Shown piece by piece: positions 1-54,692 of a DNA stretch of 64,000 nt. Every line of letters starts with the position of its first letter. Within the stretch, counting starts at the first letter, position 1. The notes beneath the pieces are model-generated. The model did no database searches. It was not told the origin of the DNA and was given only the letters and a program-made list of their open reading frames with translations. Both the position numbers and the translations under genes were made by a program. Source of the DNA: Patescibacteria group bacterium (GTDB lineage: Bacteria > Patescibacteriota > Gracilibacteria > UBA4473); the NCBI GenBank assembly GCA_965660445.1, contig CBFIAK010000002.1:1-64000 (forward strand). The letters are read 5' to 3'.

Positions 1-3000
1 CATGCCATTGCTCGTAAATCCGGTGCTTCTCAAGAAGCAACTCAATGGGTTTTAGATTCTTTTTTAGGAAGTAAGAAAACAAGAAAACTGGACCAGAAAA
101 TGTTTGAGAAAAGTTTAAAAACGCCTGTAGAAAAGAAAGTGTCTGATGTGCCTGTGAGTGCAAAAGAGTCGCCTGTTCGACTCGATAATCTGCTCTCAAA
201 AGCGCCGAGATTGGGAAAAATTCCTGATAATCTAAAAACGGTATTTGGTGTTGTGTCAACAGATAATGAGGCTCAAGTATTCCAAAAAATGAAAAAAGGA
301 TTTGTTTCATTGGGAGTTGTTTTAGAAAAGGCAGATATAAATGAGGTATCAAGAGCGATTGAAACCTTTACTGATATGGTAGATGAGTTTCAGTTTGCTA
401 CGAATCGTATGTCTAAGTTTACAAGATTAGAGGAAGGAAATGCAGTGAAAAGAATTGACGATTTGCATGCACAGGTAGTTTTGTCTCCTGAAATGCAAAA
501 AATGTATGATGAAGGGGTTGGGGTATTGGATGAGTTTTTAGAAGTGTCTCAAGAACTATTAGTATCGGCAAGGAAGCATGGAGATGAAATATCTGTGCAA
601 AAAATAGAGAGTCTTGTTTCTTCGCTTCAACAAGAAAAGAAGCTCTTTCGTGTGGGGTTGGGAAATGTTGATTTAACAGACGATGCAAGAAAAGTTCGTG
701 TTCAAGAAGATGTTCGGGAAATATTTGGAATGGATTTATCGCCAAAACAATTAGATGCTTTTGTGGAAGCGCATAAAATGCCGGGTGAGTTTGGAAACCT
801 TACACAAGCACAAATAAAAATGAGAATTACTCATTTGCACGAAGCAGGGGTGTCAGATGATGTTATTCGATATGCTTTGGATGCAGGGTATTTGGGGTGG
901 GTGCAATCTTTGGGGAATGGTATGAAACGGGTGGGGAAGGGATTATGGAGAAATACACTTGGATTGATTACGAGAGGAAAAAATAAAGCAGTTGGAACGT
1001 TGAAAGAAGGTGCTACTGCTACAAAGACAAAACTTATGGATTGGCGTAAGGAAAAGAATTCAGGAGTTGCTCTCTCTGAGGTGCAAAAACGATCTCAATC
1101 GATTTTAGATAAAAATAGAAAAGCGTATGCTGATTTGCAAGAAACATTGGAGAATCTGCTTACGAGGGGCATGAATTTGCGTTATCGATTTGAGAGAGCT
1201 TCTGGTCAGCATTATGTTTCATCATTTGAAAATTTTGATAAGGTCTTAGATCATGATCCAAAAGGGTTGTTGGCTTCTGCGGATTTATTAATAAAGAGTT
1301 TGAAAAAAACAGTTCAGGGGTCTGTTATTGATTTAAAAGATTCTGGTCGTTTGGTTTCTGGGAAATTTGAGTATGATATGGATTCGGGGAAGTATATTTT
1401 TGATGATGATTTTGTAACAGCTTTTAAAAGACAAGGAGGAACAAAAGAGTCTTTAAATGTTTTAGCTCCTCTGTTGAAGGATATAAATCCTGAAACAGAT
1501 AAAGATTTAGTCGCAGATATTCTAGCATATGTACAATTAAAGTCATCGGCATCGTCAGGTGGGGTGACTAGTAATGCTTTTTCTTATAGAGATATTAATA
1601 CCCAGAGGAAAGCAATTATAAATAAATTAAAGGGAGAACCAGGGGCTATTGATGATATTCGTAAGGATGTGCGTTCTTATTTATCAATGAAACAAACGAA
1701 TCTTACAATAAGTCCAAGTGATATTACAGCAGCAGAGCTTGATTTAAAAGATAAAAAGAATGTTTGGGATTCGTATTTGAAAAGTTGGTTAAATGAGGGT
1801 GATGGAATGAATTTATCTCCAGATGAGTTGGCAAATTCAAGGAAAACATTAGAGCTTTCTAGTGAATATCAAGATTTTGTGAATGCGAATAGCAAACTCT
1901 TATCGCTTAAAAGAGATTATAATCGGATAACGTTTTCTCAAGGAGTGGATGGATTAGATGATCAAACACTTCTAATGCGTTTAACTGAGCGATTAACAAA
2001 AGATTCTGAGGCAGCTGTAGCCGCTGAGACGCGATTTTTGAAGGCATGGGATCGTGTATCAGAAGTTCAAGAAAGGCAAAAGAAAGGAAAGGGGAAACTT
2101 GTGGCAGGGGGTATTGTTTTGACTGCTTTAGTTGGAGGAGGTGTTTATTTTCGTGAAGAATTAGAATCGGCTTTTGGTGTTGGTGTTTCTGTCGCAGAAA
2201 CTACGAAAGAGGCGGCGGAAGCTTTAGCAGAGCGCATTCAGATTGTATGGAATGGGAAGGGGGTTGTCTGGGAAAAAGATCTTAATGGTAATAAGAGGTT
2301 GCTTATTGATCCAAATTTGCAAGAAACTAGATGGGCTGTGTTAGCGGGGGAGATTGCGAGTGGATATACTATTACGTCTATCGATGATCTTATTGAGAAA
2401 AAGGAATTAGGGAAAATGGTTCAGCATACAGTGCAATCACTGACGCCATTGCAATTTGCAAATATGAAGGTACCAGAGTCAGTTTCTTTCCTTGGGAAGG
2501 CGTGGGATAATGCCACAAATGGTATGGATAAAAGTGTTTTTATTCAGGGTCTTAAAGCGGAAAATATACAATATTTTGTAGACAAATTGATTTATAAGAA
2601 GGAGGGAATTAAAAAAGACGGAACTCCGTATACGAGTTTTCAGGATAAACCTGATGCTGGATATGCCGAAGTTTCTGCATTTCAGCCTTGGATGGTTCAG
2701 TATATTCAAAAAGATGTTGTAAATGATATTGCCCAAAAAAATCAGAAACTCTTTTTTCAGCTCTTTGATCTGATTCGATCAGGAGAGCGAAATGTCTCAA
2801 AAGGAGGTATTCAAGTAGAAAATGAAAAGTTCTCGCCAACACAGAATGAGTTCGTATCTCATTTGAATGAAAAATCAATTCAATCATTAATGCAATCAGG
2901 AAATCTTGATAAACTAGAATCGTTTATTGTGTCGATTGATTTATCGGATTTTTCTGTGAATGAACTAAAACATTTATCGCTTAAACAATGGGTTGCTTTA

Positions 3001-4032
3001 AAAGAAGCTTCTCAGCGAAGTTTGGATCCAAAAGCTTTTATGGATACGCTTGAGTATCATTTGTCTTATCCAGGGGATGAGGATCATATGAAGATTGCAA
3101 AGACTTTACTTGCTATTGTATATGGTGATGATGTTGTGAATTCAGGAATCGGGTATACAGATAGGACGGATAAGAGTTTCTTGGAAAACCTATCAAATAA
3201 AGTGTATTCTGCATTTGAAAAGACAAAAGATGGAGTTGTAGATGCGTCGGTTGGTGTGGGTGAGTGGACGGCTGACCAATATAACGCTATTCGGTATTGG
3301 ATAAAAGATAAAGAGGAGATGATAGTTGTAATGGAGGATTTAAATAAAGATTTTAATAAAAAGGAATCGTATGAGGTTCGAGACTTAGAGCGCTATGTTT
3401 TAGCTCTTGATTATTTGGAAAGTAAAGGAGGGACAATCTTTTTGCCTGATAGTTTTGATGTTGTAAAACTAGCGAATGGAGTAAAGATGGGTGATTTGGA
3501 GTCGAAAGATATTTCTTATTTTTATGAAGATAATGGAGTGTTAAAACGAAAACCACTTTCTGAATTAAAAGGTGAGGGTTTTTGGGGTGCTTTAGTGGGG
3601 ATGGATATCAAAGGTTTCTTAGAAAACCAAGAAGGTCTTCTTGAAAAGCTGAAAGGTAAAAATGAAGAATCGAAAGATGAGGAAACCAAAAACTCTGAAA
3701 AAGAAACAACACCGGAGAAAAGAGAACTATCAAAGGAGGAAAAAGAGAAACTTATATCTCAGGCAATTGATGGGATGAATCTTTTGCGTGGTATTGATCC
3801 GCTTTCAAGAAAACATATTGAATCATATCAAAAGCTTTTAGACTCCGTTCGGAAAAATGGTGGGGATATTGCCGATATTCCGTTTCTCATTGGAAAGCGT
3901 GGAGGGCAATATATTATCATTGATAATAATATAAATGATGCCTTGTATCAAGGCTTTCGAAAAGGTGTTTTTAAGGGGAAAGATATTACTTTACCGCTTT
4001 TATATTCTTATGTTTCAAATATTGATGAATAG
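1..4032 (+). CDS. Very large orphan protein (>1340 aa, 5'-truncated by window edge), helical, one central TM segment
   Basis: Frame is open from base 1 (HAIARKSGASQEATQWV...) through the ATG at 100, so the true start lies upstream; hydrophobic LVAGGIVLTALVGGGVYF at ~2098-2151; no recognisable catalytic motif. Confidence 0.8.
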   Translation, partial: HAIARKSGASQEATQWVLDSFLGSKKTRKLDQKMFEKSLKTPVEKKVSDVPVSAKESPVRLDNLLSKAPRLGKIPDNLKTVFGVVSTDNEAQVFQKMKKGFVSLGVVLEKADINEVSRAIETFTDMVDEFQFATNRMSKFTRLEEGNAVKRIDDLHAQVVLSPEMQKMYDEGVGVLDEFLEVSQELLVSARKHGDEISVQKIESLVSSLQQEKKLFRVGLGNVDLTDDARKVRVQEDVREIFGMDLSPKQLDAFVEAHKMPGEFGNLTQAQIKMRITHLHEAGVSDDVIRYALDAGYLGWVQSLGNGMKRVGKGLWRNTLGLITRGKNKAVGTLKEGATATKTKLMDWRKEKNSGVALSEVQKRSQSILDKNRKAYADLQETLENLLTRGMNLRYRFERASGQHYVSSFENFDKVLDHDPKGLLASADLLIKSLKKTVQGSVIDLKDSGRLVSGKFEYDMDSGKYIFDDDFVTAFKRQGGTKESLNVLAPLLKDINPETDKDLVADILAYVQLKSSASSGGVTSNAFSYRDINTQRKAIINKLKGEPGAIDDIRKDVRSYLSMKQTNLTISPSDITAAELDLKDKKNVWDSYLKSWLNEGDGMNLSPDELANSRKTLELSSEYQDFVNANSKLLSLKRDYNRITFSQGVDGLDDQTLLMRLTERLTKDSEAAVAAETRFLKAWDRVSEVQERQKKGKGKLVAGGIVLTALVGGGVYFREELESAFGVGVSVAETTKEAAEALAERIQIVWNGKGVVWEKDLNGNKRLLIDPNLQETRWAVLAGEIASGYTITSIDDLIEKKELGKMVQHTVQSLTPLQFANMKVPESVSFLGKAWDNATNGMDKSVFIQGLKAENIQYFVDKLIYKKEGIKKDGTPYTSFQDKPDAGYAEVSAFQPWMVQYIQKDVVNDIAQKNQKLFFQLFDLIRSGERNVSKGGIQVENEKFSPTQNEFVSHLNEKSIQSLMQSGNLDKLESFIVSIDLSDFSVNELKHLSLKQWVALKEASQRSLDPKAFMDTLEYHLSYPGDEDHMKIAKTLLAIVYGDDVVNSGIGYTDRTDKSFLENLSNKVYSAFEKTKDGVVDASVGVGEWTADQYNAIRYWIKDKEEMIVVMEDLNKDFNKKESYEVRDLERYVLALDYLESKGGTIFLPDSFDVVKLANGVKMGDLESKDISYFYEDNGVLKRKPLSELKGEGFWGALVGMDIKGFLENQEGLLEKLKGKNEESKDEETKNSEKETTPEKRELSKEEKEKLISQAIDGMNLLRGIDPLSRKHIESYQKLLDSVRKNGGDIADIPFLIGKRGGQYIIIDNNINDALYQGFRKGVFKGKDITLPLLYSYVSNIDE

Positions 4033-4058
4033 GTTGAGCTTTGTCTTTTAAAAAAAAC

Positions 4059-4088
4059 TTGCCAACCAAACTTCCTTTTCTCTATACT
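4059..4088 (+). promoter_or_regulatory. sigma70-type promoter of the 4134 gene
   Basis: TTGCCA ... TATACT with ~18 nt spacing, 45 nt upstream of the ATG. Confidence 0.6.
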
Positions 4089-4133
4089 AGGTATGTATTA
4101 CTAATTTTTGATTCTTAAATCATTAAAAAACTC

Positions 4134-6518
4134 ATGAAATTCTTCTCGTCTATCGTTTCCAAATCATCTCCTTCTCGTTTTTTGTATAATGTAGAGCAGT
4201 ATAATGCTGCAAGAGAAGAACTCGGAGATGTTATTGCTTCTATTCGTGAGGAGCTTGAACAAAACAAACTTGAAACTGTCGATGTAAAAGCAGGGTACAC
4301 TCTGTCTGAATCAGTAGCAGCTCTGGCGAATAAATCAGTAGGAGAGGCTTTAAATATGCCTTTGCGATATGAGAGTATTCGAAAAAGTGTGTATGGGCCT
4401 TCTGTGCCTGATCAGGTGCGAGGAGCTGCTTGGATTTATCCAGGACAGGTTGTGAGTATTGAAGACGGAGTTGTTGTTGTGCGGGATAAGAGTGCGAATT
4501 TACAGAAAGTTTCTGCAGAGTTGGCAAGTGTGGAGGATCCTTCAAAGGGATGGGACGAGCCGAAAGATCTTTCGGAAGGATGGGATCTTCCTGAAAATGT
4601 TGATGGGTTTTTAGGATCAGTATGGGATACGGTGGGTAATGGAGAAACGTGGTCAAATTTAGGAGAAGGAACTTTGAATGTATTGAAAAAAATTGGAGGG
4701 GGGCTTGAAGATGTTTTTGATGGAACTGCTTACGAAGGACTTAAAAATCATTTGAATAAAGCAGGAGATTTAACAATGGTTGATATTTTGAAAGGGGTAA
4801 AAGATGGAACTTTGTATGTTGCTAGAAAAGGTGGAGAAGTCGTTATTTGGACAGGGGGAAAAGTTGGTGAAGGGGTGAAGTATGTACTTAGTGGTGATGA
4901 AGCTGAAAAATTTGAACAGAAAAAAGAAGCGGTTGAGAAAGGATTTATTGAAGGTGTTCGAGATGGAACGGTTGATCTTTATGAAAATGGGGAAAAGAAA
5001 GCCGTTGATGTGATGAATTGGTTTTCTGATACGTATGATGAGTATTTGGGTGCAGAATCAAAAGATGTGCGTGCAACACTGAAAGATTATATTGCCGGAA
5101 AAGAAGTGAATCCTGCTGATTTAATGCATAAAATTACAAATGTAAAAACACTCGATGAAAACTTGATGCAGGCACTGCAAGTTGAGAAGGTTCGTCAATT
5201 TTTTACAGGAAAAGATATTGTATTTGCTCATCTTGAGTCGGTTGATGCAGGGGCGTACCGATTGATGGAAAACTGGAACGCGAAAAGTTTAACGTTTGAA
5301 AAGTTGGAGGATTTGAATCTTCCGAAAAACGGGAAAGGTGAAATTGATGTTGATATTGAAGACTGGTCGTTTGGAAATTTGAGTTTTAAAAAAGTAAAAA
5401 GTCTGAATGAAACTGAAGCTCGGTGGTTGTCTCGTTTTGATGGTGTTGTGTACTTACCTTCATTAAATGAAGATACAAATAAGAATATCATTGATGCTCT
5501 TGACGGAGGGAAAGCAACGATAAGATTTAATGATTCAATTAACGGAAAACGGCTGGATTGGAACGCCGAGTCAATTATTGATAATACGACACGATATTAT
5601 GCAGAAAAAGATATTTTGGATTCTGGTGATTGGGGGAAAATGTCTGCTTTGGAATCACTTTCTACTGCGAAATATGGAGGTATGCCCGAAGGGTATTCTG
5701 AAACAGGGTTTGTAAATGCGTTGTGGGGAGAAGTGAGTCGTGCTGATGGGGCATTGGATGCCATTGATCTTTCTGGTTTGAAAGAAGGTGGTGTTTCGGC
5801 AGAACAAATGAGTATTCTTTCGCGTATTCCAGTTGATGTGAAGCTGAGTGGAGGACTTAAAAAACAATTAAATGATGCTCGTAATAATATTTTAATTCAA
5901 GGATTTGAAAGTGGGAATATGGAAATGAGAGGAATCGCTCTTGCTTTGGCTCCTTTGAAATCTATTAAATTTTCACCTGAGGCAAAAGATGCCATTCGAA
6001 ATTATGTATTTATGTGTTGTATGGAAACTCGACTCGATTGGGAAGACCAAACAGCTGCTTTGGTTGAGTCTTATAAAGAAGTATTTGGAAACGAAGGTGA
6101 TGCGATACGAGAGAGAGTGAGTGGGCGAGTGGAAAATGTTGAGTTTTTATCAATTTCTTTAGATCGAAGTCTTTTGGAATCATATATAGAGCAATTGAAA
6201 AATAGTGATTCTCTTGATGATGCTCAAAAACAAGTTTTAATCAACTATTTCGAAGAAACGATGAATCTGCCAGATGTTGTAAATGGTATTGATCCGAATG
6301 CTTGGAAAGGGGTGTTGTATCATATGTATGTTTCAAAAGATGTTTCGGCAGCTATTCCAGATTCTCAAGAATTGATTCAAGAATTCTTGGCTGGGCATGG
6401 TTCGGAGATAACTCCTGAGCAAGTATCATACTTACAATCGTTTGTTGGGGAAAATGCAGATGATATGATGACATTTGATCCAACAGTATGGCTTGTGATT
6501 TTCGATAAGATGTATTAA
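4134..6518 (+). CDS. Orphan protein with N-terminal RFLY motif, LysM-like segment and degenerate LRR-like repeats
   Basis: 794 aa; TVDVKAGYTLSE...WIYPGQVVSI resembles LysM ends; LSFKKVKSLNETEARWLSRFDGVVYLPSL and IDLSGLK resemble LRR-type repeats; no hydrophobic signal peptide. Confidence 0.7.
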   Translation: MKFFSSIVSKSSPSRFLYNVEQYNAAREELGDVIASIREELEQNKLETVDVKAGYTLSESVAALANKSVGEALNMPLRYESIRKSVYGPSVPDQVRGAAWIYPGQVVSIEDGVVVVRDKSANLQKVSAELASVEDPSKGWDEPKDLSEGWDLPENVDGFLGSVWDTVGNGETWSNLGEGTLNVLKKIGGGLEDVFDGTAYEGLKNHLNKAGDLTMVDILKGVKDGTLYVARKGGEVVIWTGGKVGEGVKYVLSGDEAEKFEQKKEAVEKGFIEGVRDGTVDLYENGEKKAVDVMNWFSDTYDEYLGAESKDVRATLKDYIAGKEVNPADLMHKITNVKTLDENLMQALQVEKVRQFFTGKDIVFAHLESVDAGAYRLMENWNAKSLTFEKLEDLNLPKNGKGEIDVDIEDWSFGNLSFKKVKSLNETEARWLSRFDGVVYLPSLNEDTNKNIIDALDGGKATIRFNDSINGKRLDWNAESIIDNTTRYYAEKDILDSGDWGKMSALESLSTAKYGGMPEGYSETGFVNALWGEVSRADGALDAIDLSGLKEGGVSAEQMSILSRIPVDVKLSGGLKKQLNDARNNILIQGFESGNMEMRGIALALAPLKSIKFSPEAKDAIRNYVFMCCMETRLDWEDQTAALVESYKEVFGNEGDAIRERVSGRVENVEFLSISLDRSLLESYIEQLKNSDSLDDAQKQVLINYFEETMNLPDVVNGIDPNAWKGVLYHMYVSKDVSAAIPDSQELIQEFLAGHGSEITPEQVSYLQSFVGENADDMMTFDPTVWLVIFDKMY

Positions 6519-6540
6519 TTTGTTTATTTAAGAAAAAGGA

Positions 6541-6577
6541 AAAAAGCACTTTCTTGAAGGAGAAAGTGCTTTTTTTT
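6541..6577 (+). terminator. Rho-independent terminator
   Basis: AAAAAGCACTTTCT-TGAAGG-AGAAAGTGCTTTTTTTTT. Confidence 0.85.
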
Positions 6578-6702
6578 ATTGTTTTGTAATATTTTTGTAA
6601 TTATTTCAAGCGCAATTGTGTTATTTGTTTTGAAAATACTTGCCAATATCTAGTGATGTACGTTACAATTTTATTGATACAATTTTTTATTCTTTCGATA
6701 TT

Positions 6703-8085
6703 ATGAAAACACTGCAAAATTCGGTTCTTAATTGGTCTTCTTCTGAAGTTGGAGCTCGGTTTGTTTTTCAACAATCAAGACCTTCTGCTACTCCAGGAGG
6801 GACTGCTGAAAAGGCAACGCTTGGTGATGCATGGGGAATGAATTATGAAATGATTTCTCGAGATTTTAAAAAAATGGGAGTAGAGGCTGAATCTATGTGG
6901 GATGAAGGGTATGATAAAGTAACGAATAGTCTTTCTGATTTTTGGGATTCGGCTGTTGAGGCGGGTGTTGAGTTCTCGAATAGTGAGTTAGAACAGAATA
7001 ATATTCGAGCGGCTATTCTTTTGGGTGATTATTCTCGTGTTTCGGAACTGAAAACATTGGGTGGTGAATATGCGAAATATTTTGATATTTCTATTGATAA
7101 AAATGAGTACCATTCAAAAGTCGGTGATGATATTCGAGCAAAAGCACCATTTTTGAATTCGAAATATGATCAGATTATTATGGAAACTTTGGTGAATAAT
7201 GCGGGGATAGAAAAAGATGGTTGGCGTACGCAGATGACAAAGATGCCTCTCAATAAAATTCAAACAATGTCTATAGATGCCGCTCGTTCTCTTTTGAATT
7301 TCAATGGGAGTGTTGTGGAATTGCAGTCTTTGGATCAAAATATTGTTGATCCAGCGGTGATTGATGTGTTTGCACGATGTGAGCAAAAAGGAATTACTAT
7401 TGTGTTGGGAGCGGATCAAGCATTACTTCGAAAGTTAATTGATAATCAAAAACAAGCTTTAGCAAATACGGTTTCAAGTGTGCCACAGCATACTATTATT
7501 GAACAAATTAGCAATGGGTATCTTGGAAATGTTCATCAACTTGACTCAGCTTCTTTGACGTATGAAGTCGCTAAGAATATTGAAAAATATGAAGATCGAT
7601 TGAAAGGAAAATTAGATCTTTCAGGTGTTGAATCTATTTCGGATCCGCGGGTAGCTGCAGAGTTGGCAGATGTTGATGTTAAAATTATGTTATTAGGTGT
7701 TCGTGATTTTCAGAGCCCAGAAATTGCTAGAGAGTTGGGTGATGCGAGTGCTGATCGAATTAATATGCCGAATTTAAAAGCAAAAGGTACAAATCCAGAA
7801 GCGATGCGAGCATTGCTTGAATATGAAGGAACTTTAATTCTTCCAAAGATGTCACGATCTGATGTGTGGGCAGATGGAACGAAGTTTGTTTCATTGATGC
7901 AAAACGCAGAATCGTTTGTAGAGGATAAAGATTTTTTCCAAACAAATCTTGGTGATCCAAATGCAATAGTGCCGAAAACGACAAATTCTTCAAATACTAA
8001 TACTCAAGGTTCAGGAAAAAAATCGTCTCCATTCGGAGGGGGTGGGAATAATAATTCTTCAGGAAAAAAGAAGAGCCCATTCTAA
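6703..8085 (+). CDS. Orphan protein with N-terminal RFVF motif and LRR-like repeats
   Basis: ATG at 6703 follows promoter TTGCCA(6640)-N18-TACAAT(6664); repeats such as LDLSGVESISDPRVAAELADVDV / IMLLGVRDFQSPEIARELGD / INMPNLKAKGTNPEAMRALLEYEG; low-complexity tail with SGKK(S/K)SPF twice. Confidence 0.7.
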   Translation: MKTLQNSVLNWSSSEVGARFVFQQSRPSATPGGTAEKATLGDAWGMNYEMISRDFKKMGVEAESMWDEGYDKVTNSLSDFWDSAVEAGVEFSNSELEQNNIRAAILLGDYSRVSELKTLGGEYAKYFDISIDKNEYHSKVGDDIRAKAPFLNSKYDQIIMETLVNNAGIEKDGWRTQMTKMPLNKIQTMSIDAARSLLNFNGSVVELQSLDQNIVDPAVIDVFARCEQKGITIVLGADQALLRKLIDNQKQALANTVSSVPQHTIIEQISNGYLGNVHQLDSASLTYEVAKNIEKYEDRLKGKLDLSGVESISDPRVAAELADVDVKIMLLGVRDFQSPEIARELGDASADRINMPNLKAKGTNPEAMRALLEYEGTLILPKMSRSDVWADGTKFVSLMQNAESFVEDKDFFQTNLGDPNAIVPKTTNSSNTNTQGSGKKSSPFGGGGNNNSSGKKKSPF

Positions 8086-8109
8086 ACGAGAAGAAATTAT
8101 AAAAATTAT

Positions 8110-8140
8110 GAAAAAACTAGTACTTGTACTGGTTTTTTTT
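8110..8140 (+). terminator. Rho-independent terminator
   Basis: AAAAAACTAGTAC-TT-GTACTGGTTTTTTTT. Confidence 0.65.
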
Positions 8141-8179
8141 GTTTTTTTGTGGTATAATGGAAAGATTTTATTTCTCTAA

Positions 8180-10153
8180 ATGATTTTATTCTCATTCTCG
8201 GTTTCGGAAAATATGCGGTTTTTGTATCAAAATAGCCCAAAGAATGCCCCTAATGCGGTGAGTACTTATCCTGTTATTATTGCACAAACAAAAGAAGATC
8301 TTCTACAACTCGATAAAAGAGTTGCTTTGTATCCTCAATCAGAAGAAGAAAAAGACATAGTATCAAAACCTTCTTCATTAATTTCTCAAAAATCGTCACC
8401 GAGTATAACACAAAAACCAAATTCAACTGTTGTTCTTGCACAACAAAATACAGAATTACTCGATACACTCTATAGTGATGAAAGAGTTGCATTATTTCCT
8501 TTGCAGTCTCCGTCCCCTTGGGATTATTTTCTAAAATCTGGAGTGAATTTAGAAACGAATCGGTTAAATTTTTCAGATGTCAATGTATTGAACCATAACC
8601 GGCTTCCTATTGATGCTTTTGGTGGTGGGCGGAATGAAACAGCACAGTTTTTTCAAATGTTGGCTGATTATGGAGATATGCATGATAAAGCGTTTATTCA
8701 AAACAATTCAAAACAATTAACCTATTATGCCGATCAAATAGATATGACCAGAACATTGCACCAAATGCTCAATCCTGAGTATACAGAAAAATGGGCTTCG
8801 CAATGGAGTGAATATAAAGATTTTATTGCGTTTGCTCAAAACACACTTTTGCCAAAACTTCAGTCGTTTAACCCAGAAACACAAACATTTAAAGAATTCT
8901 TAGATGATGCGGTGTCTGATTTTTCTTCACTTGAAGCGTTTCAAGATGCACCAGATTCTTTGAAAAGTACGCTTGAAAATGGACTGAAATCAGCTTTACT
9001 GAACCAACTTTGGTATGTTAACGATCGGTTTCAGGAAAATTCAACAGCAAAACAAGATCTTCAGTTTCAGTCGCAATTGTATGGGTTTTCATTAATTCAG
9101 TCTCAGTTTCTTCAAAGACCAGCGCAACGATCAGCAATCAATGTGTTTGCACAAAAAACAATGGAAAGTTGGTTGAATTCTGAAAATTCTCTTGTGCATG
9201 TCGAAGGAACCGCCCAATATGATATAGGGAAAAAAGGAAAACTCTCTTTTTCTGGAGCATTAGGGTTAAACCCTTCTGGAAAACTTGGAGGAGACGAAGG
9301 AAACTTTGATCTCTATACAAGAAATGCTCTTTTAGCAACGACCAAGCTTGCCTACACACAACCAATTTTCGAAAAATCCGGTATTGATGCTGATATTAAT
9401 GCAGAACTGAAGTTTGGGGTAATTACTCCATTAGGGGATGCAATGTCTCGCCATACGGGAAATTTTCAATTAGCAGGAAATATTGTGGGGGTGGATAGTG
9501 GAATGTTGACTTTTGGAAACCTTGCCGATACGGAAATGATGGGATACGGGAAAATTGATGCCGTTTTTCGAACGGAAAATAAATCACAAACACTCTTGAT
9601 TGATTGGAACCCTCAAATGTACGTGTTACCATACCAAGTCATTGATACATTCCAAGGGGAGGCTTGGCAACAAGCCAAAGAAATATCAGGTATTCAGTCT
9701 TCTGGAGCCGACCTTGTTCCAGAAATGCTTTTTGGAATAAATCTTCAGTATTCACCAGATTCTATACGAAGAAATAATAAAAATGAACCACAACGAATTG
9801 ATAAAGCTCCGGATTTACTCTTTAAAGGAGGCCTTCTCTTGAATGTAAAACGACCATTCTTAGAGGCTTTATCTGAAAACGATAACGTTGAAATACTTCG
9901 TTCTATTCAAGCGTTAAACCTTGAAGTCGATAAAAAAGTAGCTGATGATGTTCAATTATATCTCAAAACTCAATTCTCTGGAGGTATTGGAGGTGGAGCA
10001 AACGTATTTTTGAATAATTTTAATACTGCGTTTGGAACCAGATGGCAAATGGATAGCAAAGGAAAACTTCTGTTTGATGCCAATGTTGGGCTTACTCAAT
10101 TTGGAGGTCATAAAAACTACAACGCTCAAGTAGGAGTAAAATGGAACTTATAG
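8180..10153 (+). CDS. Orphan protein with N-terminal RFLY motif and C-terminal beta-barrel-like region
   Basis: 657 aa; extended -10 TGTGGTATAAT upstream; C-terminal half has alternating amphipathic strands and ends ...LLFDANVGLTQFGGHKNYNAQVGVKWNL. Confidence 0.7.
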   Translation: MILFSFSVSENMRFLYQNSPKNAPNAVSTYPVIIAQTKEDLLQLDKRVALYPQSEEEKDIVSKPSSLISQKSSPSITQKPNSTVVLAQQNTELLDTLYSDERVALFPLQSPSPWDYFLKSGVNLETNRLNFSDVNVLNHNRLPIDAFGGGRNETAQFFQMLADYGDMHDKAFIQNNSKQLTYYADQIDMTRTLHQMLNPEYTEKWASQWSEYKDFIAFAQNTLLPKLQSFNPETQTFKEFLDDAVSDFSSLEAFQDAPDSLKSTLENGLKSALLNQLWYVNDRFQENSTAKQDLQFQSQLYGFSLIQSQFLQRPAQRSAINVFAQKTMESWLNSENSLVHVEGTAQYDIGKKGKLSFSGALGLNPSGKLGGDEGNFDLYTRNALLATTKLAYTQPIFEKSGIDADINAELKFGVITPLGDAMSRHTGNFQLAGNIVGVDSGMLTFGNLADTEMMGYGKIDAVFRTENKSQTLLIDWNPQMYVLPYQVIDTFQGEAWQQAKEISGIQSSGADLVPEMLFGINLQYSPDSIRRNNKNEPQRIDKAPDLLFKGGLLLNVKRPFLEALSENDNVEILRSIQALNLEVDKKVADDVQLYLKTQFSGGIGGGANVFLNNFNTAFGTRWQMDSKGKLLFDANVGLTQFGGHKNYNAQVGVKWNL

Positions 10154-10164
10154 ACGTTTCGCTT

Positions 10165-10454
10165 TAGAGGAGACAACTTAGAAACCGCCATTCTGCGGTT
10201 TTTTGTTTTCTCCTCTATACGAAAAAGTGCTTACTTTTTCGATACCTCTTTCCAATAAAGAGTTTGAGTGCTTCGAGCCCCACAAGACCCAAAGCGTACT
10301 CACACATATTTTATTTTTGAAATATATTCATTTCAAAATCAAAATCAGTTAAAAATTTGAGTTGGCTCCCTTGGGTGGTGCTGACTCAAATTTTTTCTTC
10401 TTAAAGGGAAAAGATAGGTATTGGAAAGAAAAACCGAATGGTTTGTCTTTCCAA
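10165..10454. other. Intergenic string of stem-loops (candidate structured ncRNA plus terminators)
   Basis: Seven consecutive inverted repeats at 10165-10217, 10220-10241, 10246-10262, 10265-10302, 10315-10338, 10351-10395, 10421-10454. Confidence 0.45.
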
Positions 10455-10464
10455 AAAAGAAGCG

Positions 10465-11688
10465 CTATAGCCCTTCTTGAATTCTCAATAACTGGTTGTA
10501 TTTACACACTCGTTCAGACCGAGAAAGAGACCCTGTTTTGATTTGTCCGGCGTTTGTTCCCACTGCTAAATCAGCAATAAATGAGTCTTCGGTTTCTCCT
10601 GATCGGTGAGAAATAACGGTACCAAACCCGTGTTTTTTCGCTAAGTGCATGGTCTGAAATGTTTCGGTTAAGCTTCCGATTTGGTTTACTTTAATCAAAA
10701 TAGCGTTGCATAAATGTGTATCAATAGCCACTTGTAACCGTTTTGGGTTCGTGACGAGTAAATCGTCACCAACTAACTGCAACTTACTTCCAAACCGTTC
10801 TTGCATTTTTCCAAACCCAATAAAATCGTCTTCATGATGTGAGTCTTCTAGCGACTCAATAGGATATTTTTTCATCAGATCAGCATAGACATCAATAAGT
10901 TCAGCAGACGATACCACTCGGTTATCAATGTGGTACTGTCCGTTTTCATAAAACTCATTGGCTGCTGCATCCATAGCGAGGCGGACTTTTCCGTCGTACC
11001 CCGTTACATGAATTGCTTCCAAAATAACATCACACGCTTCATGAGAATGAGCTATATGAGGAGCAAAACCACCTTCATCACCCACTCCAACAGCGTGTCC
11101 TTTTGATTTAAGTATCTTTTTTAACGTATGAAAAATTTCAGCACCTGCTTGTAAGTTTTGTCGAAAATCTTCGAAATGAGGAAATACCATGAATTCTTGA
11201 ATGGCAAGTCCCGAATCAGCATGAGCGCCTCCATTTAAAATATTCATCATCGGTCGAGGTATGCTCATACGCCCTCCAAATAAATGATTGATATGTCGGT
11301 ATAGCGGGATGTTTTTTTGTACGCTTGCGAGTCGACACACGGCAAGCGATACCCCTAAAATAGCGTTGGCTCCTAATTGTGATTTATTCGGAGTTCCGTC
11401 TAAATGAATCATTTTTTGATCAATGGCTTCTTGGTTTTGAGGATCAAGCCCCAAAACAGACGGCCCAATAATCGTATTCACGTTTCGAATAGCTTGTAAT
11501 ACTCCTTTTCCGTTATATCTATCGAGGTCTTTGTCTCTGAGTTCTAATGCTTCGTGAGCGCCTGTTGATGCCCCTGAGGGGACGCATGCACGTGCGACAT
11601 GTTGTCCATCAGAAACTTCTACTTCAATGGTTGGGTTTCCTCGTGAATCAAGAATTTCTCGTGCGAAAACAGATTTAAGTGGCTTCAT
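10465..11688 (-). CDS. eno: Enolase (phosphopyruvate hydratase)
   Basis: AREILDSRGNPTIEV, VPSGASTG, GDEGGFAP, ILIKVNQIGSLTET, SHRSGETED, QIKTGSLSRSER. Confidence 0.99.
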   Translation of the reverse strand: MKPLKSVFAREILDSRGNPTIEVEVSDGQHVARACVPSGASTGAHEALELRDKDLDRYNGKGVLQAIRNVNTIIGPSVLGLDPQNQEAIDQKMIHLDGTPNKSQLGANAILGVSLAVCRLASVQKNIPLYRHINHLFGGRMSIPRPMMNILNGGAHADSGLAIQEFMVFPHFEDFRQNLQAGAEIFHTLKKILKSKGHAVGVGDEGGFAPHIAHSHEACDVILEAIHVTGYDGKVRLAMDAAANEFYENGQYHIDNRVVSSAELIDVYADLMKKYPIESLEDSHHEDDFIGFGKMQERFGSKLQLVGDDLLVTNPKRLQVAIDTHLCNAILIKVNQIGSLTETFQTMHLAKKHGFGTVISHRSGETEDSFIADLAVGTNAGQIKTGSLSRSERVCKYNQLLRIQEGL

Positions 11689-11868
11689 GGTTGTGTAAAA
11701 AAAATCAGTTTTATTGTAAGGAATTATTCAAAAGAAGTGTAGAGAATGCGTATTGTTTTGGTCTTTAAAATATGGTATAGTTTATGAGTAAAAGAAAACA
11801 TCTTTTCTTTTGTGTGTTTGGTATGAAAATACATTGAATTTCTTTTGGTTTTTCTGCACAATGGATGT

Positions 11869-13422
11869 GTGAAAAAGTTTTTTCTTATCGGGTTTATCTG
11901 TGTTCATTTGTGTTTTGTGCCATACTTTGTGGTACAGGCAAATCTTCGTGTGAGCGATGCCGTGGAGATTGTGAATGGGAAGGTTGTAAAAACCACAGTA
12001 CTGGCTAATAAAGAAGGCTCTGTTTTTCTTGAGTTTTTAAACGATACTCGTGTATTCGCTCCTGTGGAAGGATCATTTGCGGGATCGGTGTTGCCTCCTG
12101 TTGTCATTGATCGTCCTTATTCACCGCCTCTTCCGTTAATGCAAGATGTTGTTGTGTTTTCGTTTGAATCGAGTATGGACGATATGCCGTTGCAATTTGC
12201 TGATAAAATGCAGTTTGTACGTAATAAAACCGCTTATCGTCTTGAGCATTTCTCTCCTGAGGAATTTGAACGTACAGCACATGTGCGTGTGTTTGTACCA
12301 CTGGATAAAGAAGTAACAAAAGCGTCTTTATGGCAATTTATAGATACCAATGAAACGAGATCGGGGCGTATGCCGTTTTGGGTTCGTATGGGAGGACGCA
12401 TAACTCAAACCGATAAAGACCCTGTTTTCGTAGCGCATATAAAAGAAACAGGTACGTATGCTGTCTTTAATGAGAACCCGAACCCCACAGGAACAGATCC
12501 CGTCAACCCCGATGATATAGAATTAGCAGAATTACCCCCTTATATTGATGAATTCACAGACCCTCAAATGGGACTGAATGAAGCTGGTCTTTTTGATTCA
12601 TCTGATCTGGAACTGTATGAGCAATTGGGCGATGTTCCCCCTTATATTGAGTCTCAAGGTTCTCTTGCACCAACCAATCAAACGCCTCTCAATATTGAAG
12701 GCAATCCTGATGCAATGGTTCCAGGGATGCAAGCGCCTAATATTTTTCAGGCTTCTGCTCCGTTATTGCCTACTCAGACCGTACCCGCTCAAAATGCAAT
12801 GGGGACTCAATCGCAAGACATGATTCCTTCAGTAACATCTCTATCAGATACTCTTCCTTCACAATCTCCTGCGCGAAGTGCTCCTCCATTACCTATCTAT
12901 GCTTCATATGTGCAGTGTGATGCTCCACCACCTCGTCTTGATACTCTTCCAGGGGCACCGAACTGGCAACGTCCAAATTATTTGAATCCTGATGTCAATA
13001 CTCAACCACTGACACAAGACCAAATAAACCAAATTCCAACGTATTGTCGTATCTTTATTCCTCGTGATGTGATGCAGTCTTATCAAGACTCATTACTCGC
13101 TTTGGATCAAAACCAAGAAGTACCACAAAATATTCTTGAAACCCAACAAAATAATGGTTCTTTTGCCATAGATACATTTCAGTCTGAAAATGAAGAAAGA
13201 ATCGAGGACGAAGGAAACACTATTCCCAATGATATGAATCTTTCAGATCTTCAGGCACAAGTGTTTCATTCGCCATTACCAAAAACGGGAAACCAAGGGC
13301 GTCTGGATATTCCGTTTGGAGTCTTGAGTGTGTTGGGGCTTTTGGGAGCGAGTGTGTGGGTAATAGTGCGACAACGAAATCAACGCATAGTGCTTGTTCC
13401 TCGTAATCAAAACCGTCCATAG
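11869..13422 (+). CDS. Secreted surface protein with C-terminal LPXTG sortase anchor
   Basis: Probable GTG start giving signal peptide (M)KKFFLIGFICVHLCFVPYFVVQA; Pro/Gln-rich linker; LPKTG at 13276-13290 followed by hydrophobic IPFGVLSVLGLLGASVWVIV and basic RQRNQR. Confidence 0.75.
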   Translation: MKKFFLIGFICVHLCFVPYFVVQANLRVSDAVEIVNGKVVKTTVLANKEGSVFLEFLNDTRVFAPVEGSFAGSVLPPVVIDRPYSPPLPLMQDVVVFSFESSMDDMPLQFADKMQFVRNKTAYRLEHFSPEEFERTAHVRVFVPLDKEVTKASLWQFIDTNETRSGRMPFWVRMGGRITQTDKDPVFVAHIKETGTYAVFNENPNPTGTDPVNPDDIELAELPPYIDEFTDPQMGLNEAGLFDSSDLELYEQLGDVPPYIESQGSLAPTNQTPLNIEGNPDAMVPGMQAPNIFQASAPLLPTQTVPAQNAMGTQSQDMIPSVTSLSDTLPSQSPARSAPPLPIYASYVQCDAPPPRLDTLPGAPNWQRPNYLNPDVNTQPLTQDQINQIPTYCRIFIPRDVMQSYQDSLLALDQNQEVPQNILETQQNNGSFAIDTFQSENEERIEDEGNTIPNDMNLSDLQAQVFHSPLPKTGNQGRLDIPFGVLSVLGLLGASVWVIVRQRNQRIVLVPRNQNRP

Positions 13423-13432
13423 TTTTTTTTGT

Positions 13433-14473
13433 ATGCCTGATTATGAATTTTTTTCGTTTGATGTACCCCATTCTCAAGAATGGGATCTTTTTGTCGCCCA
13501 GTCTCAACTTGGATCGATTCATCAAACTTCATGGTGGGCGAATTTTCAGAAAAAAATACCCGGACGTGACTTTGTTCGTGGATACGGTGTTCGTCATTCA
13601 AAAACCAAACAAATACTGTCGACTACTTTTTGTGTTCAAATGAAGGTGGGAGTTGGTGATTTTTTTTGGTGGTATTCTCCTCGTGGACCTGTATTTGATA
13701 TGGATCATTGTGAAGCAGCGTGTGCCTTATTGCAGTTTGTAAAGAAAGAGTTACAAAAAAGTCGAGGTATATTTTGGCGACTTGATCCATTGGTACCCAT
13801 CTCTCAAACCTTTTCGTATCCATTTTTAACCTGTGCAGCGACACAAAACTATCAACCCACCGATACACTTCATATAGATCTCACGCAATCATCAGATGTA
13901 ATTCTTTCGCAAATGAAACGAAAAGGGCGCTATAATATACAACTGGCTCGTAAACATGGCGTTACGATACAGTCTTTATCAGCTTCAGATATAACCGATC
14001 AAGATATCGATGATTTTTGGAAACTGAATCAAGACACAACACAGCGTGACTCTTTTTCAGGACACGAAAAATCGTATTATCGTCATTTTTTGTCGTCTCT
14101 TCCTGATATTGCCGTCCTATTTTTCGCGGTTGCACCAGATGGAACGCGTATAGCCACCGCTATTTCTACTTTTTATGCTCATCATGCAATTTATTATTTT
14201 GGAGCCTCAACATCTGATCCACACTTTCGAAAATATATGGCGCCTTATTTGCTTCAATGGGAGATGATGCAGTATGCGAAAGACAAAGGCTTTCGGGATT
14301 ACGATTTTTTAGGTATTGCACCAGAAAATAAACAAAACCACCCATATGCAGGTATTTCAGAGTTTAAATGGAAATTCGGGGGAACTCGAAAAACCTATCA
14401 TGCGGGGCGTGAAGTGCCTTTGCGATGGTTTTGGTATGGTGTGTATCGAGTTTTAAAATTTTTTCGTTCATAA
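13433..14473 (+). CDS. femX: FemAB/FemX-family peptidoglycan cross-bridge aminoacyltransferase
   Basis: SIHQTSWWANF, YSPRGPV, MKRKGRYNIQLARKHGV, YYFGAS, APYLLQWEMMQYAK, YDFLGI, GISEFKWKFGG; likely ATG at 13433. Confidence 0.9.
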   Translation: MPDYEFFSFDVPHSQEWDLFVAQSQLGSIHQTSWWANFQKKIPGRDFVRGYGVRHSKTKQILSTTFCVQMKVGVGDFFWWYSPRGPVFDMDHCEAACALLQFVKKELQKSRGIFWRLDPLVPISQTFSYPFLTCAATQNYQPTDTLHIDLTQSSDVILSQMKRKGRYNIQLARKHGVTIQSLSASDITDQDIDDFWKLNQDTTQRDSFSGHEKSYYRHFLSSLPDIAVLFFAVAPDGTRIATAISTFYAHHAIYYFGASTSDPHFRKYMAPYLLQWEMMQYAKDKGFRDYDFLGIAPENKQNHPYAGISEFKWKFGGTRKTYHAGREVPLRWFWYGVYRVLKFFRS

Positions 14474-14486
14474 TTATTTTTTTCTC

Positions 14487-15347
14487 ATGATTAAGCGACT
14501 AACAAAAGCCATTATTCCTGTTGCAGGGTTCGGGACTCGTATGCTTCCTGCTACAAAAACTATCCCGAAAGAAATGCTTCCGGTGTTTGATACTCCCGTT
14601 ATCGATTGGATTATCCGTGAAGTAGTGCAAGCTGGTATTCAGGATATTATTTTAGTGACTAGTAGTAACAAAAAATCAATCGAAGACTATTTTGATGTTC
14701 ATTTCGAGCTTGAAACAAAACTCAAATCGAGATCCAAAACAAAATTGTTGCGTCGTATTGAAGATTTACATAATTTAGCTCGTATTATGTATGTTCGCCA
14801 AACAGAACCTCTTGGAGGAGGGCATGCTATACTGTGTGCTCATCGATTCTTAGCTCCTGACGAATCAGCAATTGTTCTTTTTGGAGACGATATTGTGATG
14901 AACGAGGGCGGAAAAAACGCGGTAGAACAAATGCTTGATATGTATATGAAAGATGGAAACCCTGTGGTACTTTTACAAGATGTTGCAAAAGAAGATGTGT
15001 CAAAATACGGTATCGTACAACAATCAAAAAATGGTCTTATCACTGATATTGTTGAAAAACCATCGATTGAAACAGCGCCGTCTTCTTTAGCCGTTGTGGG
15101 AAAATATATTTTAACGCCTAGAATGTTTGAGTTTTTATACAAAACAAAATCTGGACTGGGCGGAGAAATAGGGCTCACCGATGCTTTTTATGATTATATT
15201 CGTGCAGGAGAATCTTTGCGTGGATGTGTCCTTGAAGGAAAACGGTTTGATACAGGGGACCCTATTGGATACGCGGAAGCCTTTTTGTATGCCGCTTTAC
15301 TTCAGTATCCAGATGAGATAAAAAAACGGTTTCGGTCTTATTTGTAA
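14487..15347 (+). CDS. galU: UTP-glucose-1-phosphate uridylyltransferase (copy 1)
   Basis: KAIIPVAGFGTRMLPATKTIPKEMLP, VRQTEPLGGGHAIL, GEIGLTDA, RFDTG. Confidence 0.93.
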   Translation: MIKRLTKAIIPVAGFGTRMLPATKTIPKEMLPVFDTPVIDWIIREVVQAGIQDIILVTSSNKKSIEDYFDVHFELETKLKSRSKTKLLRRIEDLHNLARIMYVRQTEPLGGGHAILCAHRFLAPDESAIVLFGDDIVMNEGGKNAVEQMLDMYMKDGNPVVLLQDVAKEDVSKYGIVQQSKNGLITDIVEKPSIETAPSSLAVVGKYILTPRMFEFLYKTKSGLGGEIGLTDAFYDYIRAGESLRGCVLEGKRFDTGDPIGYAEAFLYAALLQYPDEIKKRFRSYL

Positions 15348-15427
15348 AGCGAAATTTCGTTCGTTCTCTTTTTTTCCTGAGAATGTTTTGTATACTGAAA
15401 CAGATTCTATTCTAACGATTTATTTCT

Positions 15428-16297: not shown

Positions 16298-16302
16298 ATC
16301 TT

Positions 16303-17712: not shown

Positions 17713-17724
17713 ATGAGTGGAAAT

Positions 17725-18129: not shown

Positions 18130-18132
18130 ATG

Positions 18133-54598: not shown

Positions 54599-54692
54599 AT
54601 ATCTGTTAAAAAGAAATCAGGATATTATACCTGATTTTCTTATTTTTTTCAATGAAGATATATTGATTTATTGTTTTGATTGTAGTGAATTA

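Follow-up and report, generated by a model that had tools for sequence, protein, structure and literature searches.

A lineage-restricted protein with a conserved leader and an outer-membrane-like strand pattern, encoded in a Patescibacteria genome

Described proteins that resemble the one considered here in architecture include the PgaA, BcsC, NfrA and Slam exporters, in which a helical-repeat N-terminal part is followed by a C-terminal barrel, and the LXG-type effector and polymorphic-toxin families, in which a conserved N-terminal trafficking module is combined with variable C-terminal domains. How CPR/Patescibacteria breach and feed from the host envelope is an open question on which this protein may bear. 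According to the available sections of PMC12857230, the essential type IV secretion system of CPR/Patescibacteria has no known substrates. Patescibacteria are described as monoderm in the available sections of PMC12857230 and PMC13278184, and the corresponding parts of PMC13278184, PMC12857230 and PMC12419801 hold no report of an outer-membrane barrel protein in Patescibacteria.

In this study, we analysed a gene in a window of 64,000 nucleotides (positions 1 to 64,000 of contig CBFIAK010000002.1, assembly GCA_965660445.1) from a Patescibacteria group bacterium. A first-pass annotation had placed an outer-membrane beta-barrel-like protein at 9200-10153, which could either be delivered to the outer membrane of a Gram-negative host or point to an unrecognised outer layer. 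We concluded that the query protein does not qualify as a textbook outer-membrane protein belonging to the bacterium's own envelope.

The gene at 8180-10153 and its conserved leader

The ORF at 8180-10153 is a genuine gene that stands by itself, as supported by a 657-codon frame in DNA of 36% G+C, a conserved leader, an internal repeat, a promoter-like site, a terminator and the strand pattern described below. The start at 9200 given in the first-pass annotation falls inside this ORF. The features of the gene and its upstream neighbours are as follows:

4134..6518, + strand: upstream neighbour, 794 aa, leader of the same kind (...SPSRFLYN...), no Pfam family
6640..8085, + strand: upstream neighbour, 481 aa, variant form of the leader (...GARFVFQQSRP...) at nt 6745-6816, no Pfam family
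8150..8158, + strand: extended -10 promoter-like site TGGTATAAT, preceded by a T-rich tract, with the ATG 21 nt downstream
8180..10153, + strand: query gene, 657 codons plus TAG, 657-aa protein
8180..8254, + strand: N-terminal leader MILFSFSVSENMRFLYQNSPKNAPN, aa 1-25, from alignments with other leader proteins
8270..8509, + strand: ~24-residue repeat in two copies, aa 31-54 and 83-110, V[IV][IL]AQ...LL...RVAL[YF]P
8609..9175, + strand: probable helical region, aa 144-332, weakly based on helices in a low-confidence AlphaFold2 model
9188..10150, + strand: predicted all-beta C-terminal domain, aa 337-657, with 11 scored strand windows
10115..10150, + strand: terminal strand NYNAQVGVKWNL, polar-x-G-x-x-hydrophobic-x-hydrophobic at the C-terminus, last residue Leu
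10180..10213, + strand: intrinsic-terminator-like hairpin of 9 pairs with a T tail, starting 27 nt past the stop codon

The site TGGTATAAT was absent from the list returned by a two-hexamer promoter consensus scan, and TGnTATAAT-like sites were also found upstream of three other leader-bearing genes. The start at 8180 is favoured over the database start at Met12 (P0002, 646 aa), because leader conservation covers aa 1-25. Eight positions (F4, F6, E10, N11, R13, F14, Y16 and Q17) are invariant between the query leader and three proteins from another genus, and the motif M.LF.F...EN.RF.YQ is common to the 17 otherwise unrelated proteins examined. In six-frame segments of at least 100 aa the motif matched 12 times, half of the matches (6/12) lying within 45 residues of the ORF start. 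A profile built from nine leaders was then run on 60 relatives and 27 loci were examined; 12 of these lay in frames with at least 170 aa downstream, and in 11 of the 12 the match starts 8-28 codons past the first possible start. The top profile score was that of the query itself (32.3 bits), and aa 2-60 of the query share 39% identity with a protein from genome G025 (E 0.0076). The query carries the motif no more than about 30 residues from its start in a long ORF, the position by which family membership was defined.

Where checked, the leader proteins have no Sec-type N-terminus, and leader homologues read KLFQFQSG at the matching positions, with no h-region. The leader itself matched no Pfam or NCBIfam family and no known trafficking domain. 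As judged from sequence, the leader family is new from this analysis and consists of a conserved, apparently non-Sec leader on otherwise unrelated proteins. Among ten full-length relatives scanned, LysM scored above the Pfam cut-off in one (27.7 vs 20.9 bits), PG_binding_1 gave a sub-threshold match in one, and eight had neither a LysM nor a PG-binding match; a family member from this genome (G000) gave a weak LysM-like match (E 0.0045). These matches hint that leader proteins may work outside the cytoplasm. Hydrophobic segments are missing altogether from at least 14 of 18 leader proteins examined, and for these a cytoplasmic location could apply.

Three leader genes stand consecutively at window positions 4134-10153, and there are several copies per genome. 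One leader gene of this genome is directly upstream of two T4SS_pilin proteins. A leader-T4SS link as a general rule was rejected, as none of five relatives' leader genes lay within 10 kb of a T4SS_pilin match.

The query protein is lineage-restricted. A word-indexed protein search returned the query alone, and the same search with aa 330-657, with E values of up to 10 admitted, found no other protein. No relative was found by phmmer among 1.84 billion representatives, in genome contigs (0 of 40 stretches), metagenome contigs (0 of 103) and viral contigs (0 of 1), or by phage tblastn and PHROGs. Sequences in the PDB gave a single chance match (E 0.94), NCBIfam two chance-level rows, and Pfam no family at E up to 1, including the OMP, autotransporter, TPR, SlipAM, NfrA_C, AsmA and DUF490 families. 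The ESM Atlas held no model for either start variant, and comparison of the query halves with E. coli controls by phmmer, NfrA, PgaA and other barrels included, gave nothing above noise. Neither of the neighbours P0004 and 481-aa protein has a full-length relative among the 60 genomes, and in the nearest enolase-bearing relative (70% identity) an unrelated 599-aa gene occupies the equivalent position.

Strand pattern and composition of the C-terminal domain

The seven strand peptides quoted in the first-pass annotation (HVEGTAQYDI, KLSFSGALGL, DINAELKFGV, LFGINLQYS, VQLYLKTQF, TAFGTRWQM and LLFDANVGL) and the end NYNAQVGVKWNL are all present in the 657-aa translation. The alternation of hydrophobic and polar residues was borne out by counting 9-residue windows, taken without overlap, in which the alternate face is apolar and uncharged: aa 330-657 contain 11 windows, compared with 3.07 ± 1.55 in shuffled sequences, of which none in 1000 reached 11. 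With hydrophobic helices masked, the query alone reaches 11 among the 833 gene-like ORFs of the genome. When drawn by hand, aa 337-657 would accommodate some 16 long strands, every one of which has a face that is apolar and uncharged. The 9-residue window count gave 4-10 in ten E. coli outer-membrane proteins and 5 in TamA; among non-barrel controls, it was 15 for E. coli TamB and 10 for a protein with PKD repeats encoded in this genome, and the strand pattern is therefore not specific to barrels. A cruder count based on the hydrophobic moment gave 6 windows against 2.39 ± 1.30 in shuffles (3/500 reached 6) and a single amphipathic-strand window in aa 1-329, and on this measure the query ranks 64th among proteins of at least 200 aa, which is ordinary for this proteome.

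The terminal strand was previously read as a beta-signal. The pattern does fit NYNAQVGVKWNL, but it also ends 8 of the 833 ORFs of the genome, where 3.06 would be expected, and the last residue is indeed Leu rather than Phe or Trp, as the first-pass annotation had pointed out. Among eight control E. coli barrels located at the protein end, seven finish in F or W and TamA finishes in ...GLGPEL.

The composition of aa 330-657 (F+W+Y 9.5%, Tyr 2.7%, Leu 11.6%, Gly 11.0%, Asn 8.2%) was compared with that of eight E. coli barrel domains (F+W+Y 10.9-16.4%, Tyr 4.2-8.5%, Leu 5.1-7.9%), TamB (F+W+Y 5.4%, Tyr 1.4%, Leu 12.2%, Gly 9.1%) and the proteome means for F+W+Y (10.0%) and Tyr (3.3%), both of which exceed the values of the beta domain. 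The domain is rich in Gly and Asn and free of Cys; its log-enrichment is +0.61 for G and +0.56 for N, against +0.42 and +0.55 in the E. coli barrels. Correlation of composition was rejected as a fold discriminator (r 0.80 with TamB, 0.69 with barrels and 0.72 with PKD; 0.55-0.62 for the N-terminal-half control).

In the middle region, the two repeat copies are separated by a Ser/Pro/Gln-rich stretch, and their local alignment score of 47 was reached by none of 2000 shuffles (19.3 ± 4.1). AlphaFold2 was run on the single sequence, as there were no relatives for an alignment, and its models were unusable for the same reason (mean pLDDT 33.9 over the full length and 29.2 when aa 330-657 were modelled separately); the best blocks, with pLDDT 55-74, lie at aa 210-260. 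By language-model proximity, the OM-barrel families SlipAM and NfrA_C were the sole Pfam-named families among the 30 nearest clusters, each at 0.87; Atlas scores below 0.9, with 121-129 of 256 features in common, are graded by the tool as a lead only.

Export signal, envelope genes and competing readings

No Sec signal peptide was found in the query: its first 50 aa reach a 12-residue hydropathy maximum of 1.04, whereas five proteins of the genome that carry a signal reach 2.27-2.76 and the median over the proteome is 1.43. A transmembrane helix is likewise absent (19-residue hydropathy maximum 1.0). The envelope genes located in the window are:

13394-14473: FemAB, 145 bits
26428-26898: LCP, 111 bits
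53759-54598: sortase

An LPKTG sortase substrate is also encoded. Searches for Omp85/BamA, LptD and LpxC gave no match each in the 991,330-base genome, which scored 100 for completeness and 0.74 for contamination; among 14 control genomes, the Omp85 search was positive in 7, the LptD search in 2 and the LpxC search in 4. The monoderm gene set described by the first-pass annotation was thus upheld, and the search for bamA and lptD that it had suggested found neither. As for its outer-membrane barrel, the OMP-like strand pattern stands, but there is no Sec signal, aromatic enrichment or Pfam OMP family, and the genome has no BAM, Lpt or Lpx genes. Two small orphan proteins of the genome, encoded at C1:335895-336752 and C1:417195-418004, carry Sec signals, contain 17-21% aromatic residues and have OMP-like ends (...WQTGIIFRF and ...YQYQFGIQYAL).

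Considering the above results, the reading we favour, with a probability of roughly 0.4, is that the beta domain is soluble or an open sheet and that the leader-tagged protein acts outside the cell. The protein would consist of three parts: the 25-residue leader, a probably helical middle and a 320-residue all-beta C-terminal domain. This domain would most likely form an open or soluble sheet (a sandwich, a jelly-roll or a TamB-like groove), with its apolar face buried or lining the groove. Export might use a pathway that recognises the leader rather than a Sec signal, a role of the leader on which we can only speculate. The site of action would be extracytoplasmic, either on the cell surface or in contact with another cell, where the protein may bind a surface or lipid.

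It is unlikely, on the present balance, that the C-terminal domain forms a genuine transmembrane beta-barrel with some 16 strands, exported and inserted into a host outer (or other) membrane as a pore or anchor. Its strand count tops that of all ten E. coli OMPs and of TamA, an even-numbered 16-strand layout with an uncharged face on every hand-drawn strand seems drawable, Gly and Asn are enriched as in E. coli barrels, and the terminal strand fits polar-x-G-x-x-Hy-x-Hy, its Leu being no disqualification given the end of TamA. The proximity to SlipAM and NfrA_C points weakly the same way, but at the level of a lead. Against a barrel, the query has no Sec signal and matches no OMP or TPR family in Pfam, phmmer relates it to no E. 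coli control barrel, NfrA and PgaA included, aromatics are below and Leu is above the values of all eight control barrels, with aromatics also below the proteome mean, the beta-signal pattern occurs at chance level in the genome, and all but one of the protein-terminal control barrels finish in F or W.

A cytoplasmic protein, with a leader that tags for assembly, turnover or localisation and a beta domain of ordinary soluble fold, is doubtful to a similar degree. The query has neither signal peptide nor transmembrane segment, most of the leader proteins examined are free of hydrophobic segments, and eight of the ten scanned gave no LysM or PG-binding match. Such a reading has to contend with the member in which LysM passes the cut-off and with weaker peptidoglycan-binding hints in three others, with a beta domain that is rich in Gly and Asn and has no Cys, and with the size and fast evolution of the family, which resembles the strain-variable large extracellular proteins of Peribacteria described in the available part of PMC4736985.

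Somewhat less probable is a bolder proposal, in which an undescribed leader-reading export route of this single-membrane, host-dependent bacterium would deliver a cargo whose 16-strand beta domain enters the membrane system of the host, either as a self-inserting barrel pore in the outer membrane of a Gram-negative host or as a groove like that of TamB, through which lipids of the host would be drawn to a cell perhaps not making its own. For Peribacteria, rather than for this genome, the fatty acid source is stated to be unclear in the available part of PMC4736985.

That the query is an outer-membrane protein in some unrecognised outer layer belonging to the bacterium is very improbable: the OMP-like pattern of the query and the two orphan Sec-signal proteins would suit it, but Omp85, LptD and LpxC are absent from a genome scored as 100% complete, sortase, LPKTG substrate, LCP and FemAB are encoded, the query has no Sec signal, and the phylum is described as monoderm in the sections cited above (PMC12857230; PMC13278184). 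Least credible of all is a chance open frame at 8180-10153. The absence of relatives in the collections searched would suit it, but 657 codons stay open in DNA of 36% G+C, leader conservation at the protein level extends to proteins from other genera, the repeat, promoter-like site and terminator are all present, and the strand pattern is well outside the shuffled range.

The favoured reading, a leader-tagged protein acting outside the cell, and its competitors differ in what they would mean. A membrane-facing beta sheet in a cell without outer membrane or BAM would be a candidate host-directed pore or lipid conduit, and a non-Sec leader on many large, fast-evolving proteins would help to find the exported repertoire of the lineage. 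If the beta domain is an ordinary soluble fold, a strand pattern and a beta-signal-like tail are insufficient to call an outer-membrane protein. TamB, an open beta-groove, is a warning case, as it outscores every true barrel tested on strand count (15 vs 4-10).

Comparison with known systems

Compared with BAM-dependent outer-membrane barrels (porins, OmpA/OmpX), the query shares a long run of amphipathic strands, Gly-rich tight turns and Gly/Asn enrichment, and its domain lies at the extreme C-terminus with a last strand that is hydrophobic at -1, -3, -5 and -7 and has Gly at -6. In contrast to these barrels, it lacks a Sec signal, a Pfam match and aromatic enrichment, is high in Leu and ends in Leu, and comes from a genome without BAM, Lpt or LPS genes. 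It differs from autotransporters (type V secretion) in having neither a Pfam autotransporter match nor a signal peptide.

With PgaA, BcsC, NfrA and Slam the query has in common a probably helical region followed by a beta domain of about 320 residues that ends the protein, and the last 330 aa of NfrA are the control barrel closest to it in composition (F+W+Y 10.9%, Gly 9.4%). However, the query matches no TPR, SlipAM or NfrA_C family in Pfam at E up to 1 and lacks a signal peptide, and genes for a polysaccharide-synthase or lipoprotein partner were not seen next to it.

The leader recalls the LXG-type families, in that a short conserved N-terminus is found on many unrelated, fast-evolving large proteins, several per genome. 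Unlike the LXG module, it has only about 25 residues and no trafficking-domain match, with no secretion machinery linked and no toxin or immunity genes recognised.

In contrast to the AsmA/TamB proteins, the query lacks an N-terminal membrane anchor and matches neither AsmA nor DUF490 in Pfam, and its beta domain comprises 320 aa compared with the 1259 aa of TamB. Its strand density is nonetheless similar (per 330 aa, 15 for TamB and 11 for the query by the 9-residue count, 6 and 7 by the 11-residue count), and both proteins are poor in aromatics, rich in Leu and Gly, and end in a strand that resembles a beta-signal.

Amphipathic strands in the C-terminal domain

Translation of window 8180-10153 (+) gives a single open frame of 657 codons (the query), whose back half is the 9200-10153 interval that the first-pass annotation had read as an outer-membrane-type barrel; every strand peptide quoted there was recovered in the translation, and the C-terminus is NYNAQVGVKWNL. 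At a probability of roughly 40%, we read the query as an exported, leader-tagged protein with an open or soluble beta domain, which would act at the surface or at host contact; the alternatives weighed below do not take up all of the remaining probability.

The amphipathic-strand pattern of the query is real and extreme. Strands were counted with a statistic of our own, which was tuned on a single organism (10 positives, 133 negatives) and is blind to barrel versus groove versus sandwich. A 9-residue window was scored, without overlap between windows, if its five alternate positions carry only uncharged residues (L, I, V, F, W, Y, M, A, G, T, C), three or more of them large hydrophobic, and if the four intervening residues include three or more that are polar or Gly. 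The count for residues 330-657 is 11, against 3.07 ± 1.55 in shuffled sequences, and none of 1000 shuffles gets to 11. With hydrophobic helices masked and each protein represented by its highest-scoring 330 residues, the query alone reaches 11 among 833 gene-like ORFs of its genome, where ranks rest on a simple longest-ORF set and not on an annotation. Ten E. coli outer-membrane barrel proteins (OmpF, OmpA, ElfC, OmpT, NfrA, FepA, PgaA, HtrE, FhuA and BamA) score 4-10, and 133 other proteins from the same four chromosome stretches have a mean of 1.87 and a maximum of 8 (Tsf); CusC and CsgG, outer-membrane proteins of another build, were left out. With 11-residue windows, the query scores 7, the E. 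coli outer-membrane proteins 1-5 and the other proteins at most 3. A cruder hydrophobic-moment count was significant, being reached by 3 of 500 shuffles, yet it gives the query an ordinary rank of 64 in the proteome.

The pattern is not barrel-specific, because the runner-up among the 833 ORFs, with a score of 10, is a PKD-repeat protein, and E. coli TamB (locus L119) scores 15, or 6 with 11-residue windows, above all eleven true barrels tested; TamA scores 5. TamB is a periplasm-spanning open beta-groove with no transmembrane barrel, and its score is a caution against calling outer-membrane barrels from sequence alone. Its C-terminus is likewise a beta-signal-like strand.

Table. Residue shares of the query (residues 330-657), of eight barrel domains from E. 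coli and of TamB
F+W+Y: query 9.5%; barrel domains 10.9-16.4%; TamB 5.4%
Tyr: query 2.7%; barrel domains 4.2-8.5%; TamB 1.4%
Leu: query 11.6%; barrel domains 5.1-7.9%; TamB 12.2%
Gly: query 11.0%; barrel domains 8.3-15.2%; TamB 9.1%

The aromatic share of the query is also below the 10.0% of its own proteome. Correlation of enrichment profiles gave no discrimination (barrels 0.69, TamB 0.80, PKD 0.72; control with the N-terminal half of the query 0.55-0.62). The last eight residues match polar-x-G-x-x-hydrophobic-x-hydrophobic, a terminal pattern found in 8 of the 833 ORFs against 3.06 expected from its internal frequency; of eight E. coli barrels placed at the very end of their protein, seven terminate in F or W, and TamA in L. 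The tail appears compatible with a beta-signal and is given little weight. Laid out by hand from the C-terminus, aa 337-657 could be divided into 16 strands with one charge-free face each; tight turns rich in Gly (DIGK, FEKSG, ENKSQ, SGG, DSKG, GGHKN) and three longer links connect them, and one of these links, aa 557-588, is probably helical. Such a layout would suit a barrel of 16 strands whose two ends share a side, and an open sheet equally.

A true membrane barrel directed at a host membrane, as had been proposed, is favoured by the strand count, the beta-signal-compatible tail and the language-model neighbours SlipAM and NfrA_C, but a classical barrel is opposed by the composition, by the lack of a Sec signal and by the failure to find BAM genes in the genome, and we consider this reading unlikely. 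In the protein-language-model search, the 30 nearest clusters include just two families with a Pfam name, SlipAM and NfrA_C, at a weak 0.87 each with 121-129 of 256 features common with the query; they are rated a lead only. We take both to be outer-membrane barrels placed after a helical-repeat region; Pfam detected no SlipAM, NfrA_C or TPR repeats in the query, and by phmmer it was unlike E. coli NfrA and PgaA.

The N-terminal leader and its family

Residues 1-25 of the query are conserved, yet they carry no Sec signal: the best 12-residue hydropathy in the first 50 residues is 1.04, compared with 2.27-2.76 in five signal-peptide proteins of the genome and a proteome median of 1.43. No transmembrane helix was found in the query (19-residue hydropathy maximum 1.0). 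The leader spans about 25 residues with the core RF[ILV][YF]Q, often as M.LF.F...EN.RF.YQ..P. Across all six-frame segments of at least 100 aa in the genome, RF[ILVM][YF][QNE] occurs 12 times, in six cases within 45 residues of a long-ORF start. Six leader ORFs are present, three of them consecutive within window 4134-10153:

Window 4134-6518, leader gene
Window 6640-8085, leader gene
Window 8180-10153 (+), leader gene encoding the query
C1:788701, C1:565811 and C1:292038, leader ORFs on contig C1

The ORF at window 1-4032, before these three genes, is truncated by the contig end. GC skew is 0.28-0.37 (2-kb windows, window 1-8000) across the three large ORFs upstream and 0.04 at the query gene.

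A profile built from nine leaders (alignment A1) was run on 60 related genomes, and 27 loci were examined. Twelve have 170 or more codons of open frame downstream, 11 of them beginning 8-28 codons past the first start and one internal; the remaining 15, whose frames are short, are probably noise. When the query was aligned with three proteins of another genus (A2), F4, F6, E10, N11, R13, F14, Y16 and Q17 were invariant. The public database entry of the query (P0002) starts it at Met12 (646 aa; window 8213 versus 8180); because residues 2-11 are conserved in leader proteins from another genus, the start at 8180 is favoured.

Leader-bearing proteins, including those of relatives (loci L002, L005, L007 and L108-L117), are 146-1564 aa long and mutually unrelated. 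At least 14 of 18 lack a hydrophobic segment, and no Sec-type N-terminus was seen among those checked. Since the other 17 have strand counts of 0-5, the query is alone among them in its beta-rich domain. Among ten leader proteins scanned, LysM exceeded the Pfam cut-off in one, a relative (27.7 vs 20.9 bits), and PG_binding_1 was sub-threshold in one; two further leader proteins gave weak LysM-like matches. The leader family matched no curated model in Pfam or NCBIfam. That these non-Sec leaders form a conserved family is shown. A leader of this kind might also serve another purpose in a cytoplasmic protein, which we regard as improbable for the query; an exported protein is preferred.

T4SS_pilin was matched 15 times in the genome, and the following type IV features were located:

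Window 54693-56774 (-), TraG-like P-loop ATPase, between the sortase and a PG_binding_1 protein (53759-58012)
C2:65590-67280, T4SS_pilin (VirB2-like) array on contig C2, starting just beyond the window end
C1:565811-574501 (9812-18502 of locus L010), leader gene directly before two T4SS_pilin-domain proteins, 520 aa and 1223 aa

At L010, the leader protein has a weak LysM-like match, its stop overlaps the start of the next gene, and PKD-repeat proteins follow the pilin-domain pair. Excerpts of published work describe the patescibacterial type IV system as essential and its substrates as not known. We claim no link between leader and type IV secretion, because no leader gene of five relatives was within 10 kb of a pilin match.

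Envelope genes and the query gene

Omp85, LptD and LpxC were not matched in the genome (991,330 bases, 5 contigs, completeness 100, contamination 0.74), in searches that were positive in 7, 2 and 4 of 14 control genomes, respectively. The sortase, LCP and FemAB genes, taken at first pass as signs of a monoderm envelope, are indeed all in the window:

11845-13422 (+), monoderm marker, a sortase substrate of 525 aa next to the query gene, with normal signal peptide, C-terminal LPKTG, hydrophobic stretch and basic tail
13394-14473, FemAB, monoderm marker
26428-26898, LCP, monoderm marker
53759-54598 (-), sortase, monoderm marker

The 525-aa protein matched no Pfam family. The gene set is thus monoderm, as Patescibacteria are described in excerpts of PMC13278184 and PMC12857230, and that the query belongs to some outer layer of the organism's own cell that has gone unrecognised, the other earlier proposal, is very improbable.

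Two small orphans of the genome begin with Sec-type signal peptides, end like outer-membrane proteins and contain 17-21% aromatic residues; Pfam gave no family for either, and the 285-aa orphan had relatives in 0 of 60 genomes and none in a large protein collection:

C1:335895-336752 (-), locus L014, 285 aa, end ...WQTGIIFRF
C1:417195-418004 (+), locus L013, 269 aa, end ...YQYQFGIQYAL

The query is a real gene, and a spurious ORF can practically be dismissed. Its -10-like site and downstream hairpin make it look like a self-standing unit:

8150-8158, extended -10-like site TGGTATAAT, with a T-rich tract upstream
8270-8341 and 8426-8509, two copies of a ~24-residue repeat, V[IV][IL]AQ...LL...RVAL[YF]P, in the N-terminal part
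10180-10213, hairpin of nine pairs with a T tail, 3' of the stop codon
10465-11688 (-), enolase, tail to tail with the query gene

The repeat pair has an alignment score of 47 against 19 ± 4 in shuffles. The genetic code is standard, and the enolase is closest to those of MAGs labelled UBA4473 (70%), Peribacteria (67%) and Gracilibacteria (64%), all Patescibacteria.

Comparison with known systems

Sequence searches of protein, genome, metagenome, viral and phage collections found no relative of the whole query or of aa 330-657; one of 60 related genomes matched, confined to aa 2-60. Matches in Pfam, PHROGs, NCBIfam and PDB sequences were no better than noise, and AlphaFold2 without an alignment gave a mean pLDDT of 33.9 for the whole query and 29.2 for the C-terminal domain. 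By the features tested, the query differs from members of the outer-membrane protein families, the autotransporters, PgaA/NfrA/Slam and AsmA/TamB, and its likeness may at most be that of an amphipathic beta-sheet protein facing membrane or lipid.
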